A DNA stretch of 64,000 nucleotides from an uncultured Bacteroidales bacterium. GTDB taxonomy: Bacteria > Bacteroidota > Bacteroidia > Bacteroidales > UBA10428. Within the stretch, counting starts at the first letter, position 1. The number at the start of each line of letters is the position of its first letter. The stretch spans positions 261,641 to 325,640 of the forward strand of contig CAVVXI010000004.1 in assembly GCA_963752195.1 (NCBI GenBank), given 5' to 3'. Below the pieces are notes generated by a model that was given only the letters and a program-made list of their open reading frames with translations, was not told where the DNA came from and did not search any database. A program made the translations under genes and the position numbers. This document shows positions 14,096 to 39,298 of this stretch, piece after piece.

Positions 14096-14127
14096 GAGGG
14101 ACAAGGGACGAGGGACGAGGGACGAGG
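14096..14127 (+). repeat. Heptad tandem repeat (GAGGGAC/AAGGGAC) x4.6
   Basis: Read directly: gagggac aagggac gagggac gagggac gagg, starting 2 nt after the cysD stop. G-rich on the sense strand. Confidence 0.95.
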
Positions 14128-14193: not shown

Positions 14194-14249
14194 TACCGAA
14201 TACCGAATACCGAATACCGAATACCGAATACCGAATACCGAATACCGAT
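14194..14249 (+). repeat. Heptad tandem repeat (TACCGAA) x8
   Basis: Seven perfect TACCGAA units plus one TACCGAT, ending 21 nt before the cysN ATG. Confidence 0.95.
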
Positions 14250-14270
14250 TACTAACAACAGAATACCACT

Positions 14271-28030: not shown

Positions 28031-28058
28031 AGCGACGAGTGACGAGGGACTAGTGACC
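28031..28058 (+). repeat. Degenerate heptad repeat (AGCGACG AGTGACG AGGGACT AGTGACC)
   Basis: Read directly, starting 2 nt after the tnaA-like stop. Related to the GGGACG heptad family and inverted relative to 28236-28263. Confidence 0.85.
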
Positions 28059-28092
28059 AGGTTGATAAGTCTTCGAAATTCGATATTCAGTG

Positions 28093-28138: not shown

Positions 28139-28168
28139 TATCCAACATCGAACTCCGTACATTCCTAA

Positions 28169-28236
28169 CTGCAAAACTGCAAAACTGCAAAACTGCAAAA
28201 CTGCAAAACTGCAAAACTGCAAAACTGCAAAACTGC
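28169..28236 (+). repeat. Octamer tandem repeat (CTGCAAAA) x8.5
   Basis: Eight perfect units plus CTGC. Confidence 0.95.
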
Positions 28237-28263
28237 CTTGTCCCTTGTCCCTCGTCACTCGTC
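28236..28263 (-). repeat. Heptad repeat, reverse orientation (minus strand GACGAGT GACGAGG GACAAGG GACAAGG)
   Basis: Plus strand reads ccttgtc ccttgtc cctcgtc actcgtc. Overlaps the last codons and stop of the ADH gene. Confidence 0.9.
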
Positions 28264-29298
28264 ACTAAATTGAATCATCGCCTTCATCACCCCGTCTTTG
28301 TATCCGGCAACCATATCAAAGGCACGGGGGGTCTCTGAAAAGCTGAACCGGTGCGTTGCCATGAGGCTGACGTCGATTTTTCCGGTTGACATGGAATGAA
28401 GGGCATCTTCCGTACAATCCACCTGCCTGCGGATATTTTGTATTATGATTTCCTTTCTGCGAGCGACATCTGCTGGAACTTTCCAAAAATCAAATTCGGG
28501 AATGCCAACAGCAACGAGCTTTCCTCCCGGTTTCAGTAATTCGAAGGCCTGGCCAAACGCTTCCTGCTGGCCGCAGCATTCAAAAATCACGTCAAGCATC
28601 AGGGGTTCGATCCCGAGTATTTCTTTTACAACATCCTGTTTCTCAACATTGCCCGCATAGGTTGCGCCGGCATTTTTCACAATCCTCAGCCGTTCATCCA
28701 GTTTATCCGTCATGTAAATCTTTTCGCATCCCCCGGCTTTGGCAGCCAGCAATACACTCATACCGATGGGGCCGGAACCAAGTATGCCAATCCGGGCTCC
28801 CTCCATTGGTATCGATTTTCGAACCGCATACACACCAATGGCAAGGGGTTCCGAAATAACCGCATGCTCCAGGCTAAGGTGATCATCTATCCGGATGCAA
28901 CTTGTCTCAGGCATAATGATATATTCTGTAAGACAACCATCGGCTTGTCCCGGACAACCCAAAAACCGCAGATTTCGACAGGTATGATGCCGGCCGGCCA
29001 TACATTGATCACACTCCCAGCATGGCATTGCAGGTTCGATGGCAATCCGGTCACCGGCTTTTACACGGGTAACCCCCGGTCCGGTTTTTATAACTATGCC
29101 TGCACCTTCATGTCCGACCGGAAATGGATATTGCACAACCTGGCTGCCGATTTTACCGGCAACATAATAATGAATATCGGATCCACAGACACCCACTACA
29201 GCCATTTTAATTAATACATCAGTATCATTCTTCAGCACAGGATCCGGAATATTTTTCATCTCCATCTTCCTGATGCCGGTGAGCATCATGGCTTTCAT
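28255..29298 (-). CDS. Zinc-dependent alcohol/polyol dehydrogenase (MDR family)
   Basis: 347 aa. GVCGSDIHYY, GHEGAG, a Cys cluster (CWECDQCMAGRHHTC) and a GxGxxG Rossmann motif (ILGSGPIG). Confidence 0.88.
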   Translation of the reverse strand: MKAMMLTGIRKMEMKNIPDPVLKNDTDVLIKMAVVGVCGSDIHYYVAGKIGSQVVQYPFPVGHEGAGIVIKTGPGVTRVKAGDRIAIEPAMPCWECDQCMAGRHHTCRNLRFLGCPGQADGCLTEYIIMPETSCIRIDDHLSLEHAVISEPLAIGVYAVRKSIPMEGARIGILGSGPIGMSVLLAAKAGGCEKIYMTDKLDERLRIVKNAGATYAGNVEKQDVVKEILGIEPLMLDVIFECCGQQEAFGQAFELLKPGGKLVAVGIPEFDFWKVPADVARRKEIIIQNIRRQVDCTEDALHSMSTGKIDVSLMATHRFSFSETPRAFDMVAGYKDGVMKAMIQFSDE

Positions 29299-35602: not shown

Positions 35603-36790
35603 ATGGATTTTAATGCAGACAGGGATAAACTTTACAGGCTGATTACTGAGAATGCCGGGGATGTTATCTGGATCATGGATGTTGAAAAGGGAAAGTTTAC
35701 CTATGTAAGTCCGTCGGTTCAGAAATTGCGTGGTTTTTCGCCGGAAGAAGTCATCAATCAACCTGTTTCAGAAGTATTAACCCCGGAAAGCTATCAGTTC
35801 ATTCTCAATAATCTGGGAATGCGGATTGAACAATTTTCGCAGGGCAATGATTCCCTTCGGGTAATGGTTCATGAAATGGATCAGACGTGCAAGGATGGGT
35901 CAATAGTTCATACAGAGGTGGTTACAACCCTGATGACAAATAAAGAAGGCAGGGTAAATGAGATCCTTGGAGTGTCAAGGGACATTACGGAACGTAAACT
36001 TGCACAGCAGGAAATTGCACGCTTAAATGGGGAACTTGAACAACGAATTGCAGAAAGAACTTCCCAGCTATTAATTTCAAATAACGAGCTCGAAGCTTTT
36101 ACCTATTCCGTATCGCACGATCTGAGGGCACCCTTGCGTGCCATTAATGGCTTTTCCACAATCCTTTCCAGGGAATACTCCGGCTGCCTTGACTTGGAGG
36201 CCAAAAGGCTGTTGAATATTATATGCGACAATGTGAAAAAAATGGATCGTCTGATCACCGATTTATTGGCTTTTTCACGACTATCCCGAAGCGAGATCAA
36301 TCTGCATCGTACAGCTATGAATTCAATTGTTAGTGCAGCCTTTGATTCCAATTCTTCCGATGAGGACAGAAAGAATATCAGGTTCATACTCCACGATCTT
36401 CCTGATGTGCCTTGTGATCCGACGTTAATGGGCCAGGTATGGGGTAACCTTATCTCCAATTCCATCAAGTTTACTTCGCCAATGAAAGAGCGTATCATCG
36501 AAATTTCCGGAAAAAGGGATGGGAATAAAACGGTTATTTATGAAATTAAGGATAATGGGGTAGGATTTAACCCAAAATATAAAAATAAGCTATTTGAGGT
36601 CTTCCAGCGATTGCATAAGATGGATGAATTTGAGGGATCCGGGGTTGGACTTGCTATTGTCAAACGTATTGTAAACAGGCACGGGGGTGTTGTTTCTGCC
36701 GAAGGAAAAGAAGGACTGGGTTCCAAATTTACAATTTCACTCCCCAATACACCCTTCAAGGGTGCCACCCTTGAAGGGTGCCACCCTTGA
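35603..36790 (+). CDS. PAS sensor histidine kinase (cytoplasmic, orphan)
   Basis: 395 aa. PAS region (ENAGDVIWIMDVEKGKFTYVSPSVQKLRGFSPEE), H-box SVSHDLRAPLRAINGF and HATPase boxes. The ATG directly abuts the speA stop (TAGATG). Confidence 0.88.
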   Translation: MDFNADRDKLYRLITENAGDVIWIMDVEKGKFTYVSPSVQKLRGFSPEEVINQPVSEVLTPESYQFILNNLGMRIEQFSQGNDSLRVMVHEMDQTCKDGSIVHTEVVTTLMTNKEGRVNEILGVSRDITERKLAQQEIARLNGELEQRIAERTSQLLISNNELEAFTYSVSHDLRAPLRAINGFSTILSREYSGCLDLEAKRLLNIICDNVKKMDRLITDLLAFSRLSRSEINLHRTAMNSIVSAAFDSNSSDEDRKNIRFILHDLPDVPCDPTLMGQVWGNLISNSIKFTSPMKERIIEISGKRDGNKTVIYEIKDNGVGFNPKYKNKLFEVFQRLHKMDEFEGSGVGLAIVKRIVNRHGGVVSAEGKEGLGSKFTISLPNTPFKGATLEGCHP

Positions 36791-36795
36791 AGGGT
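36751..36795. repeat. Three tandem 16-nt palindromic units (ACCCTT[C/G]AAGGGT + GCC)
   Basis: Read directly. Contains the HK stop (36788-90) and touches the yjbQ stop (36795-97). Confidence 0.9.
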
Positions 36796-37211
36796 CATTC
36801 ACCGATAATTTTTACCAGAACCCGTTTCCTGCGCTTGCCGTCAAATTCGCCATAGAAGATCTGTTCCCAGGGACCAAAGTCCATTTTTCCGGCAGTAACT
36901 GCCACCACAACTTCCCGGCCCATCAGTGTTCTTTTGATATGAGCATCGGCATTGTCTTCAAAACCGTTGTGTTTGTATTGCGAATAGGGCTTTTCCGGAG
37001 CCAGTTTTTCAAGCCATACTTCAAAGTCGTGATGCAGGCCCGATTCATCATCATTTATAAAAACACTGGCGCTGATGTGCATGGCATTTACAAGGATGAG
37101 GCCTTCTTTGATCCCGCTTTCAGCCAGGCACTGTCCCACCTGGCCTGTTATGTTGATAAATGCTCTGCGGGTGGGTACTTCGTACCATAGTTCCTTCCTG
37201 TATGTTTTCAT
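36795..37211 (-). CDS. yjbQ: YjbQ/UPF0047 family protein (secondary thiamine-phosphate synthase-like)
   Basis: 138 aa. Characteristic ITGQV...[26 protein letters not shown]...DNADAHIK...[13 protein letters not shown]. Confidence 0.85.
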
Positions 37212-37332
37212 GGATTTATATTTTTCAATAACTTCTTTCCAAGGCCATTATCCCCCAACTGGCGGGGGTTGGGGGGTGGACTTTGACCATTTTTCTACCG
37301 ATAGCGAATCCCTACGGGATTTTCCCCTAATT

Positions 37333-37556
37333 CGTCCCTCGTCCCTGGTCCCTCGTTCCTCGTCCCTGGTCCCTCGTCCCTGGTCCCTGGTCCCTCGTCC
37401 CTCGTCCCTCGTCCCTCGTCCCTCGTCCCTCGTCCCTCGTCCCTCGTCCCTTGTCCCTCGTCCCTTGTCCCTCGTCCCTCGTCCCTCGTCCCTCGTCCCT
37501 TGTCCCTCGTCCCTCGTCCCTTGTCCCTCGTCCCTCGTCCCTCGTCCCTTGTCCCT
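37333..37556 (-). repeat. 32-unit heptad microsatellite: plus strand (CGTCCCT)n, minus strand (AGGGACG)n
   Basis: Counted unit by unit: 22 CGTCCCT, 4 GGTCCCT, 5 TGTCCCT, 1 CGTTCCT, giving exactly 224 nt. Lies between the pgm stop (37559-61) and the yjbQ start (37211). Confidence 0.97.
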
Positions 37557-37558
37557 AA

Positions 37559-39298
37559 TTAGAGTTTCAAATCCGCAATTATATCATTAATTCGCTGATC
37601 CAGCAGAGCATTTGTCTTATCATAATCAGCGGCGGATTTTAAACTGTCCTTCACGCCAAAATAGAATTTAATTTTCGGTTCGGTGCCCGAAGGCCTGATT
37701 GAAATTTTACTCCCGTCGGCAGTAAAAAACTGTAAAACATCCGCTTTGGGTATTTTAATTCCCCCGTTTTTCCGGTTTGCTTTTTCAATGCACTCGTTAT
37801 CCAGGTAGTCCATTATTTCGGTCAGGGGTGAACCGTTGATCTTTGAAGGCGGACTTTTCCGGAAATCCACCATCATGCGATGGATTTCTTCCTGGCCTGA
37901 TTTGCCTTTCTTTTCAATGGAAATCAGTTTTTCTTTATACAGGCCGTATACCCTGTAAATTTCAAGCAACTGATCGTACATGGTCTTTCCTTTATCTTTC
38001 GCATAAGCACATGCTTCGGCAATAAGCGCGCATGACATTACGGCGTCCTTGTCACGAACAAACTCCCCTGCCAGGTAACCATAGCTTTCTTCACCCCCGC
38101 CGATGAAGGTCTGTTTGCCTTCAAACGTTTTGATCACATCCGCAATATATTTGAAACCGGTGAGTACGTCATAGCAGGTTACGGAGAATTTGGCGGCCAT
38201 GGCGGCCAGCAATTCCGTAGTGACGATTGTTTTAACTATATACTCAATGCCTTTTAATTTACCGTTTTCCGACCATTTAGTCAGAAGATAGTGAATGAGA
38301 AGGCTGGCTGTCTGATTCCCATTCAATACGATATATTCGCCCTGGTTATTCCGGACTACTATACCCACCCTGTCAGCATCAGGATCTGTGGCCATAACCA
38401 GGTCGGCGTTCGTATCCTTTGCCTTCTGAATTGCCATGGCCAGGGCTGAACTTTCTTCCGGGTTGGGTGATTTGATGGTTGGAAAATTACCATCGGAAAC
38501 ATCCTGTTCAGGTACATTGAGAACATTGGTAAAACCAAACTTCTTCAGCACCATGGGAACAAGTTTCACACCTGATCCATGCAAAGGTGTATAAACGATT
38601 TTCATATCCTTTTGTCGCCTGATTATATCGTGTGCCAGCGACAATCCGGTGATCTGGTTTGTATAGATATCATCAATTTCTGCGCCAATCGATTCTATAT
38701 TTTCAGGTCGCGCCTTGAAATTCACTTTATCCGGCGAAACCTTCAGTACTTCCGTTATGATTAACTTATCATGGGGTGAAATGATTTGTCCTCCGTCATC
38801 CCAATAGGCTTTATATCCGTTATATTCTTTCGGATTATGGGAAGCCGTTATAACAATCCCGCTCTGGCATTTAAAATAGCGGATTGCAAAGGAAAGCTCG
38901 GGAGTTGGGCGGAGTGAATCAAAGAGATAGACCTTGAATCCATTTGCTGAAAATATATTGGCGGTGGTTTCGGCGAATAGCCTGCTGTTGTTGCGGGAAT
39001 CATGGGCAATCGCAACTTTGATCTGTGGCACGGTTTTGAATTCCTGCAAAAGATAATTGCTCAGGCCTTGGGTAGCCATTGCAACGGTGTATATATTCAT
39101 TCGGTTGGTTCCCACGCCCATAATTCCGCGCAATCCCCCGGTGCCAAATTCAAGGTCACGGTAGAAGCATTCGATTAATTCGGCTTCATTTCCGTCCATC
39201 AATTCCTTTACTTTTTTTCTGGTCGCGGCATCAAAAGGCTCATTGAGCCATTTACTGGCGCGATTTTTAACTTGGGTAAGCAGATCCTGGTTTTCCAT
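37559..39298 (-). CDS. Phosphoglucomutase/phosphomannomutase family phospho-sugar mutase
   Basis: 579 aa. Active-site loop TASHNPKEYNGYK, Mg loop ATDPDADR, GGEESYG. Confidence 0.9.
   Translation of the reverse strand: MENQDLLTQVKNRASKWLNEPFDAATRKKVKELMDGNEAELIECFYRDLEFGTGGLRGIMGVGTNRMNIYTVAMATQGLSNYLLQEFKTVPQIKVAIAHDSRNNSRLFAETTANIFSANGFKVYLFDSLRPTPELSFAIRYFKCQSGIVITASHNPKEYNGYKAYWDDGGQIISPHDKLIITEVLKVSPDKVNFKARPENIESIGAEIDDIYTNQITGLSLAHDIIRRQKDMKIVYTPLHGSGVKLVPMVLKKFGFTNVLNVPEQDVSDGNFPTIKSPNPEESSALAMAIQKAKDTNADLVMATDPDADRVGIVVRNNQGEYIVLNGNQTASLLIHYLLTKWSENGKLKGIEYIVKTIVTTELLAAMAAKFSVTCYDVLTGFKYIADVIKTFEGKQTFIGGGEESYGYLAGEFVRDKDAVMSCALIAEACAYAKDKGKTMYDQLLEIYRVYGLYKEKLISIEKKGKSGQEEIHRMMVDFRKSPPSKINGSPLTEIMDYLDNECIEKANRKNGGIKIPKADVLQFFTADGSKISIRPSGTEPKIKFYFGVKDSLKSAADYDKTNALLDQRINDIIADLKL

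Follow-up and report, generated by a model that had tools for sequence, protein, structure and literature searches.

A 32-unit heptanucleotide array behind pgm in an uncultured Bacteroidales bacterium is probably an expanded copy of a dispersed, stop-codon-abutting repeat element

Introduction

The best-described dispersed G-rich heptamers of bacteria are the GGGAATC repeats of Xanthomonas and the GGGGA(C/T)T repeats of Nostoc PCC 7120, which occur in ~180 copies per genome with 2–26 units and a clear preference for four, include 70 convergent inverted pairs and vary between related species (Rehm et al., 2015; PMC4692102). Most copies are transcribed, without an identified function or a link to surface or virulence genes; the repeats fold into G-quadruplexes (G4) in vitro, for which a G-to-T change at the second G served as the quadruplex-null control, and, relative to controls, the repeats coincide more often with transcript starts or ends (PMC4692102). 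Here, we analysed a stretch of 64,000 nucleotides (hereafter the window; assembly GCA_963752195.1, contig CAVVXI010000004.1, positions 261,641–325,640) of an uncultured Bacteroidales bacterium, in which a heptad array at window positions 37333–37556 fills most of the spacer between pgm and yjbQ. A first-pass annotation of the sequence had taken this array as a stand-alone quadruplex, contingency or insulator element.

Other dispersed elements offer comparisons. Heterocystous cyanobacteria carry short tandemly repeated repetitive (STRR) heptanucleotide sequences. The repetitive extragenic palindromic (REP) sequences and bacterial interspersed mosaic elements (BIME) of enterobacteria are dispersed extragenic elements that lie in 3' untranslated regions (UTRs), frequently a few bases from stop codons, and form RNA duplexes; each REP is a single imperfect palindrome, with mobility conferred by RAYT transposases. 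TAACTGA direct repeats show a patchy distribution and lie mostly directly upstream of start codons (MacGregor, 2015; PMC4679880), and heptamers are the commonest long simple sequence repeat unit in prokaryotes according to Mrazek (2007), as cited in PMC4679880. In Coxiella burnetii, the terminal inverted repeats of an intervening sequence (IVS) with an S23p gene form a 28-bp stem that is cut by RNase III; its arms hold tandem heptameric repeats whose number varies among strains, and S23p appears not to be made and to be decaying (Warrier et al., 2016; PMC4990558).

Results

The array is one member of a dispersed repeat family

The array between pgm and yjbQ is exactly 224 nt long and comprises 32 heptads, counted on the plus strand of the window as 22 CGTCCCT, 5 TGTCCCT, 4 GGTCCCT and 1 CGTTCCT; on the minus strand, which is the sense strand, it reads (AGGGACN)32, with GGG in 31 of the 32 units. 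With a Tandem Repeats Finder (TRF) score of 380, it far exceeds every other tandem array in the window. The gene for phosphoglucomutase/phosphomannomutase (pgm; 37559–39298, minus strand, TAA at 37559–37561; Pfam PGM_PMM domains I–IV) and yjbQ (UPF0047; 36795–37211, minus strand; Pfam) are separated by a spacer of 347 nt, in which the array begins 2 nt past the TAA of pgm and ends 121 nt before the ATG of yjbQ. These values agree with the first-pass annotation in array length, unit counts, spacer length and the identity and strand of both genes, and correct its distance of 122 nt to the yjbQ start. The polar placement of unit variants that it had described was also borne out: on the plus strand GGTCCCT is confined to the first 9 units and TGTCCCT to the last 15, so that on the sense strand the 5 AGGGACA units lie within the stop-proximal 15 and the 4 AGGGACC units within the distal 9, a complete separation (P = 0.016).

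The 4.99-Mb genome assembly that contains the window (G000; four contigs, 44–46% GC) holds 467 period-7 and 289 period-8 arrays detected by TRF. A strict pattern search for three or more units of G[GT]GACNN (GKGAC arrays) returned 184 arrays, 166 of them intergenic, with GTGACGA, GTGACAA, GGGACGA, GGGACAA, GTGACTG and GTGACTA as the main units. The array sizes show a sharp mode at four units (33, 112, 18 and 6 arrays of 3, 4, 5 and 6 units, respectively) and then a thin tail, in which the array behind pgm is the largest, followed by arrays of 17, 13, 11 and 11 units. It is thus not a lone microsatellite but one member of a dispersed, polar and stop-abutting repeat family, and the stand-alone element of the first-pass annotation gives way to one of 184 arrays.

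The placement of the family relative to genes, for which crude gene calls based on open reading frames (ORFs) were used, is strongly polar. The G-rich strand is in sense orientation to the gene ending on its 5' side in 117 of the 166 intergenic arrays, and 77 of these 117 start within −8 to +10 nt of the upstream stop codon, whereas 2000 rounds of random placement inside each array's own spacer gave 8.3 on average and never more than 17. At the opposite end, the stop codon of a converging gene lies within 10 nt in only 1 of 97 arrays. Frequently, the first GTGAC unit itself supplies the abutting stop as its TGA, or the first G completes a TAG. Stop-abutting arrays were found at 46 of 682 convergent gene ends and at 31 of 1230 co-directional ends (p = 1.5 × 10⁻⁵). 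Inverted pairs of family arrays were convergent in 23 cases and divergent in none; at least 20 arm-to-arm base pairs were predicted in the fold of 19 of the 23 pairs (median 24), and the genome encodes an RNase III gene (rnc). Many further 7- and 8-mer families of this genome, including AT-rich ones, also adjoin stop codons in a fixed orientation.

Several other accounts of these rules were rejected. An orientation set by replication, as for Chi- or KOPS-like sequences, is not indicated, because 62% of arrays lie on the leading strand against a gene baseline of 54%, compared with 77 to 1 for gene direction. Arrays neither replace nor require canonical intrinsic terminators, which follow 14 of 77 stop-abutting arrays against 295 of 1296 (not significant), and the 4-unit arrays are not recent copies of a few master sequences, with 84 distinct sequences among 112. 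GTGAC units and units containing TAG may serve as three-frame stop cassettes, but AGGGACG and AGGGACA are free of stops in all frames, and the stop-cassette idea therefore cannot explain the array behind pgm. The elemental RNA polymerase pause consensus (G−10, Y−1, G+1) is fitted by GGGACGA and GTGACGA but not by the TA/TG variants or the AT-rich families, and the latter obey the same stop-placement rule as the GKGAC arrays.

Quadruplex competence is separable from size and placement

On the sense strand, the unit AGGAACG splits the G3 tracts of the array behind pgm into 28 intact ones followed by 3, so that the canonical G3N1–7 rule gives seven non-overlapping motifs, of 131 in the whole genome, rather than the eight tandem quadruplexes of the first-pass annotation, whose use of the rule itself stands. 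The G4Hunter score, a check proposed along with that claim, is a borderline 1.17. A G4-aware fold of the spacer RNA predicts ~six tandem quadruplexes (−112.5 versus −84.3 kcal/mol), and quadruplex folding of this copy is plausible on this model.

The family as a whole offers a natural quadruplex-null control, as GTGAC units, which make up 63% of all units, carry the same second-G change to T as the null control of Rehm et al. (2015). GGG begins just 311 of the 835 units, and G3 tracts are wholly absent from 103 of the 184 arrays. Nevertheless, the 4-unit mode is kept by 102 of the 154 arrays with fewer than four G3 tracts and by 70 of the 103 without any, and 36 of 100 intergenic arrays without a G3 tract abut a stop codon. 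Neither four-unit size nor stop placement thus hinges on quadruplex competence, and quadruplexes are not the defining property of the G[GT]GACNN family. What does differ between the unit types is the frequency of long arrays: at least 7 units were present in 12 of 43 GGG-type but 3 of 117 GTG-type arrays (Fisher test, 9 × 10⁻⁶; Mann–Whitney test excluding the array behind pgm, 8 × 10⁻⁴). Slippage is plausibly favoured by structure of the G-rich strand, which may also have incidental consequences for the transcript.

The array entered a compact pgm–yjbQ junction

In 23 congeners (Pgm 70–80% identical), yjbQ starts 0–42 nt past the pgm stop codon, 2–25 nt in 21 of the 23, and this compact junction has no heptad array. 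Three further congeners (G043, G004 and G006) have longer, differently arranged spacers, likewise without heptads. The inserted block is shared only with the three closest species, G020, G024 and G001 (Pgm 93–94% identical), in which the stop codon is followed by 3–5 partly decayed GKGAC units, an AATCCC/GGGATT-GGTAGAAA module, (TACGATT)n and one more hairpin module. In G001 (locus L090, contig C15), the pgm frame reads 12 extra codons through the array (VKRDEGRGTRD) until a TAG inside a unit ends it; a heptad repeat can therefore turn into coding sequence. Elsewhere in the 64 kb of synteny, orthologous gene ends keep an array at the position, but its unit type and number change or it decays.

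As the insert occurs only in the three closest species and the junction is compact in most other congeners, the insertion is recent. Comparison of the orthologous junctions, relatives being non-independent samples, shows entry of a block that holds an array of 3–5 units in the three sister species and of 32 units here; on the same evidence, most of the genus does without the block, and only in this lineage did the array grow to 32 units. The stepwise expansion proposed in the first-pass annotation agrees with these comparisons. We found no other assembly encoding an identical YjbQ or Pgm and no metagenome contig with the pgm 3' end.

A clade of PF05635 genes is bracketed by arrays of the family

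PF05635 is the family of the 23S rRNA intervening-sequence protein, with 6 matches in G000 and 0–18 in its congeners. Inverted 7- or 8-mer arrays, with a different unit at each, bracket all 5 inspected PF05635 genes of G000; the copy at C4:2586828–2587142 has GKGAC arrays on both sides, each adjoining the stop codon of a neighbouring gene. Under a strict genome-wide criterion, 10 of 3973 genes were bracketed, 3 of which were PF05635 genes, and matching inverted arrays flanked 36 of the 65 PF05635 genes of the genus on both sides. Maximum-likelihood analysis united the nine proteins encoded between G[GT]GAC heptad arms, from seven species, in one clade (support 96/89), and the other clades carry their own related units: the arm labels need 3 changes on the tree, the minimum possible, compared with a mean of 5.8 in label shuffles, none of which was as low as 3 among 200. 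The GKGAC-armed clade occurs at five or more loci, and in one of them (L315; G006 C145:26987–28204) the gene is inverted between the same flanking genes as in L282, L301, L310 and L295, which suggests inversion by recombination between the inverted arms. Five or more loci and one inverted copy are not compatible with simple inheritance at one site.

Genomes with a gene of this clade carry a median of 51 GKGAC arrays, compared with 2 in genomes without it (p = 0.011). The protein belongs to the four-helix-bundle family TIGR02436; among solved structures, XCC0516 of Xanthomonas campestris is the closest to it (2GSC, E = 2 × 10⁻²⁶), and a comparison of the family with Avd of diversity-generating retroelements gave 29.5 bits, below the cut-off. 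The spacer between pgm and yjbQ itself holds no inverted partner array, and its locus no PF05635/S23p gene. Apart from the Coxiella IVS, no paper found in our literature search connects PF05635 with dispersed arrays of heptamers.

The family is patchily distributed

Of 24 congeneric species genomes, 18 carried the family pattern, whereas all 16 genomes sampled from other families of the order lacked it, and a reversed-pattern control was near zero; the pattern (GGGACGA)3GGGAC was absent from 400 other Bacteroidota genomes of 180 genera. A scan of metagenome contigs for exact (AGGGACG)6 gave at least 120 matches. Among the matches listed, we examined 80 loci, which had arrays of 6–33 units on contigs of 39–76% GC (median 61.5%), and a PF05635 homologue was embedded in AGGGACG-type arrays at 2 of these 80. 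An ORF of at least 100 codons ended at the 5' boundary of the G-rich strand in 25 of 66 arrays, compared with 4 of 66 at the C-rich strand boundary (p = 1 × 10⁻⁵) and 4.4% of random positions (p = 9 × 10⁻¹⁶), again among the matches listed. The occurrence of the AGGGACG unit and the stop rule on contigs of 39–76% GC points to patchy spread over very different lineages.

Seven metagenome contigs of ~50–54% GC (L141, L143, L156, L170, L171, L180 and L181) share A(A/C)AAAGT(A/G/T)TAA downstream of (AGGGACG)n, a motif that may be a lineage-specific downstream module. It is unlike H1 of G000, a module described below. At three distant Bacteroidales pgm loci (L015, L024 and L044; Pgm 56–60% identical), ~four copies of GAACGAT, AATTATT and AAGTTCC, respectively, begin 3–6 nt past the pgm stop codon and look like independent arrays at a like site.

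Other modules of the spacer and the window

The rest of the pgm–yjbQ spacer is likewise composed of dispersed modules. Module H1 (37292–37321, minus strand) consists of the hairpin AATCCC-GTA-GGGATT followed by CGCTATCGGTAGAAA; its strict copies number 68 genome-wide, of which 53 run in sense and 8 in antisense orientation to the upstream gene. Module H2 (37251–37281, minus strand), GTCCACCCCCCAACCCCCGCCAGTTGGGGGA, is a C-rich hairpin with ~10 copies, frequently 15–20 nt past H1. These are the second and the first, respectively, of the two hairpins that had been placed correctly by the first-pass annotation, but as dispersed modules they are not local regulatory structures. At C1:54325–54668 of G000, H1 (AATCCC hairpin plus GGTAGAAA) forms seven near-identical tandem copies with a 57-nt period, and tandems of ~56 nt that resemble it lie at C1:565487–565672 and C1:779087–779255.

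Elsewhere in the window, a (GGGACNA)4 array of the family (14096–14127, plus strand) lies 3 nt past the TGA of a cysD-like gene (PAPS_reduct), where the three sister species have decayed versions at the equivalent position. A convergent inverted GKGAC pair has its left arm (28034–28061, plus strand) directly past the TAG of a beta-eliminating lyase gene and its right arm (28236–28266, minus strand) overlapping the stop codon of a minus-strand Zn-alcohol dehydrogenase gene, with pairing predicted over 21 bp. Other unit families are mixed with these arrays: (TACCGAA)8.4 at 14194–14252 ends 18 nt upstream of a cysN-like start codon in the spacer of the first array, and (AACTGCAA)8.8 at 28167–28236 fills the loop of the convergent pair, so that the spacers of the window look like ordered chains of modules. 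Dozens of near-identical copies of a recurrent composite block, (AAAAACT)n - GTGAnGAAGAAA - (GTGACNA)4 - GCTGACGCGGCTGA - (CTGCAAAA)n, also occur in G000 and look like a larger dispersed element enclosing a 4-heptad array.

A 171-codon ORF (37075–37590, plus strand) runs through the C-rich strand of the array behind pgm, and automatic annotation could name it as a repetitive hypothetical protein; it has no Pfam match and was taken as spurious. A 16-nt palindromic unit, CACCCTTGAAGGGTGC, is repeated 2.9 times at 36750–36795, where yjbQ and a PAS histidine kinase gene converge. An Rfam scan of 36500–38000 at E ≤ 1 gave only chance miRNA-like matches, on this palindrome next to yjbQ.

Discussion

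In sequence terms, the G[GT]GACNN family has every feature by which the G-rich heptamer class of Rehm et al. (2015) is recognised; the class is further marked by K+-dependent circular dichroism in vitro and by transcription. Both have a 7-nt unit with a G tract, ~180 dispersed and mostly intergenic copies, a mode of four units with a long tail (2–26 units there, 3–32 here), the G-rich strand on the coding strand at the stop codon (0–50 bp away or overlapping in the criterion of Rehm et al.) and many convergent inverted pairs, although the copy behind pgm is itself unpaired; in both, length and sequence differ between related species and there is no link to surface or virulence genes. Unlike those repeats, the present family belongs to another phylum and has another unit, for which our literature search gave no match. 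Its strand rule at stops is stricter (77 to 1), and, with GTGAC predominating, most of its arrays are not capable of forming canonical quadruplexes and yet keep the 4-unit mode. The arrays also bracket a specific clade of PF05635 genes, a link absent from that paper.

The elements with a gene resemble the Coxiella IVS, having a small S23p/PF05635 four-helix-bundle gene between inverted arms that contain tandem heptads and form a stem of ~28 bp; the genome also encodes RNase III, by which such stems may be cut. They differ from it in lying after the stop codons of protein-coding genes instead of in 23S rRNA helices, and most copies here are ORF-less pairs or solo arrays, that behind pgm being solo. 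With STRR and TAACTGA repeats, the family shares a lineage-restricted, patchy occurrence of tandem heptamers in intergenic DNA and the presence of several unit families per genome, but the units differ. The stop-codon and sense-strand rule and a flanked gene family are unreported in the description of the TAACTGA repeats (PMC4679880). Like REP/BIME, the present elements are dispersed, extragenic, near stop codons and able to form duplexes; unlike REPs, they are tandem heptads and not single palindromes.

Considering these results, we favour the following scenario for the array behind pgm, which we regard as probably a solo copy, enlarged in this lineage alone, of a dispersed polar repeat element and not a purpose-built quadruplex switch. 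The element consists of ~four G[GT]GACNN heptads (28 nt) on the mRNA-sense strand, starting at or a few bases from a stop codon, and frequently occurs as two convergent inverted copies able to pair into a ~24–28 bp duplex; where such inverted arrays bracket one clade of PF05635/TIGR02436 genes, it has the build of a 23S rRNA IVS, and the family belongs to the G-rich heptamer class of Xanthomonas and Nostoc. Together with two or three other dispersed modules, one array entered the compact pgm–yjbQ junction in a recent ancestor of the four species. It would have grown by replication slippage in this lineage, favoured by homogeneous G3N4 units, the expansion-prone subset of the family, and plausibly by G-strand structure such as quadruplexes. 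The array would be transcribed as pgm 3'UTR or intercistronic RNA and would have no dedicated function beyond lengthening the junction, perhaps with a weak uncoupling of yjbQ from pgm. The absence of such a function is most likely, and a dedicated regulatory or contingency role is unsupported.

Several points weigh against this scenario. Slippage, transcription and any effect on yjbQ are steps that we infer. The prediction from the arm model that long arrays are those freed from an inverted partner failed, since arrays of at least 7 units are not preferentially solo (10 of 133 solo versus 5 of 51 paired), and this idea was rejected. As the array behind pgm has no inverted partner, a fold-back/RNase III mechanism acting in cis is excluded for this copy. 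The numbers of arrays and of PF05635 gene copies both track genome size and relatedness, and G019, G020 and G024 carry arrays without the clade-specific gene, so that the protein is unneeded for array persistence. Finally, G4-competent arrays abut stop codons more often than the rest (19 of 26 versus 58 of 140, p = 0.005), which leaves room for a quadruplex-related role.

A broader reading of the heptamer arrays, which we put forward tentatively and consider possible but rather doubtful, is that the Rehm-type, STRR-type and present arrays are the cis-arms, and solo or empty copies, of widespread IVS-like cassettes. Each unit family would then have a PF05635 clade of its own, whose protein recognises the heptad or moves along with it, and paired arms downstream of stop codons would undergo processing as ~28-bp RNA duplexes. 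In that case, the 4-unit, stop-codon and sense-strand rules would belong to the element and not to G-quadruplexes.

Three mechanistic alternatives compete with the solo-copy scenario; in falling order of support, these are a quadruplex roadblock, a platform for protein binding and a contingency switch. In the first, tandem quadruplexes in RNA or non-template DNA past the pgm stop codon would slow the ribosome or RNA polymerase, acting as a terminator, attenuator, insulator or 3'-end protector. This is unlikely, even though the 31 G3 tracts of the array with 4-nt loops give seven canonical motifs, the predicted fold gains 28 kcal/mol from quadruplexes, the G-rich strand of stop-abutting arrays is always the sense strand, G4-competent arrays adjoin stops in 73% of cases against 41%, and the GGGAATC and GGGGAYT relatives form quadruplexes in vitro with transcript starts and stops above controls (PMC4692102). 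The arrays without a G3 tract keep size and placement, many families of 7- and 8-mers that are not G-rich follow the same placement rule, and canonical terminators are neither enriched nor depleted after arrays. At the locus itself, the G4Hunter score is only 1.17, the sister species have only 3–5 decayed units, of which one array is read as coding sequence, and most congeners are repeat-free.

About equally improbable is a neutral, STRR-like microsatellite made by polymerase slippage alone, unrelated to IVS-type elements and placed at stop codons because inserts are tolerated there. The commonness of heptamers among the long repeats of prokaryotes, the fast decay of arrays in the sister species and the combinatorial diversity of the 4-unit arrays are consistent with this account, as is the ancestral pgm–yjbQ spacer of 0–42 nt, in which any tolerated insert must abut the stop. 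However, slippage alone would give a decaying length distribution instead of a sharp 4-unit mode, and it does not account for the strand bias of 77 to 1 at stops, for inverted pairs that are all convergent (23 to 0), for the same unit under the same rule in contigs of 39–76% GC among the matches listed or for the tracking of a PF05635 clade by its unit family across five or more loci.

It is less probable still that the 32 units form a putative binding-site array for a cognate PF05635 four-helix-bundle protein, with pgm mRNA or DNA offering it a sink or a platform. That each PF05635 clade has its own unit family, that GKGAC arrays are more numerous in genomes with the matching gene and that the family shows a distant relation to the nucleic-acid-binding Avd, though below the cut-off, would fit such a role. 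However, the association could come simply from cassettes recombining into arrays that match their arms; arrays persist in the three genomes lacking the gene, and S23p of Coxiella appears not to be made and to be decaying (PMC4990558). Finally, a contingency locus, as raised by the first-pass annotation, here with yjbQ or pgm turned on or off by shifts in unit number, is very improbable despite a slippage-prone period that is not a multiple of 3 and a unit number that differs between species, because the array lies between dispersed modules past the pgm stop codon, outside ORFs and not between promoter elements, so that a change in unit number has no obvious on/off output, because pgm and yjbQ are housekeeping genes and the family adjoins the stops of unrelated metabolic genes, and because Rehm et al. 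were equally negative on such a role for their own repeats (PMC4692102).

Taken alone, the array is an extreme but otherwise unremarkable representative of the repeat class described in 2015, and no special regulatory story is needed. The natural control provided by GTG and GGG units indicates that the popular explanation 'four units because a quadruplex needs four G-tracts' does not hold in this lineage, where G-tracts matter only for runaway expansion. The XCC0516 structure comes from Xanthomonas, the model organism for heptamer repeats, and the link between protein and repeat turns the question of what heptamer repeats are into experiments on protein–repeat binding and RNase III processing.

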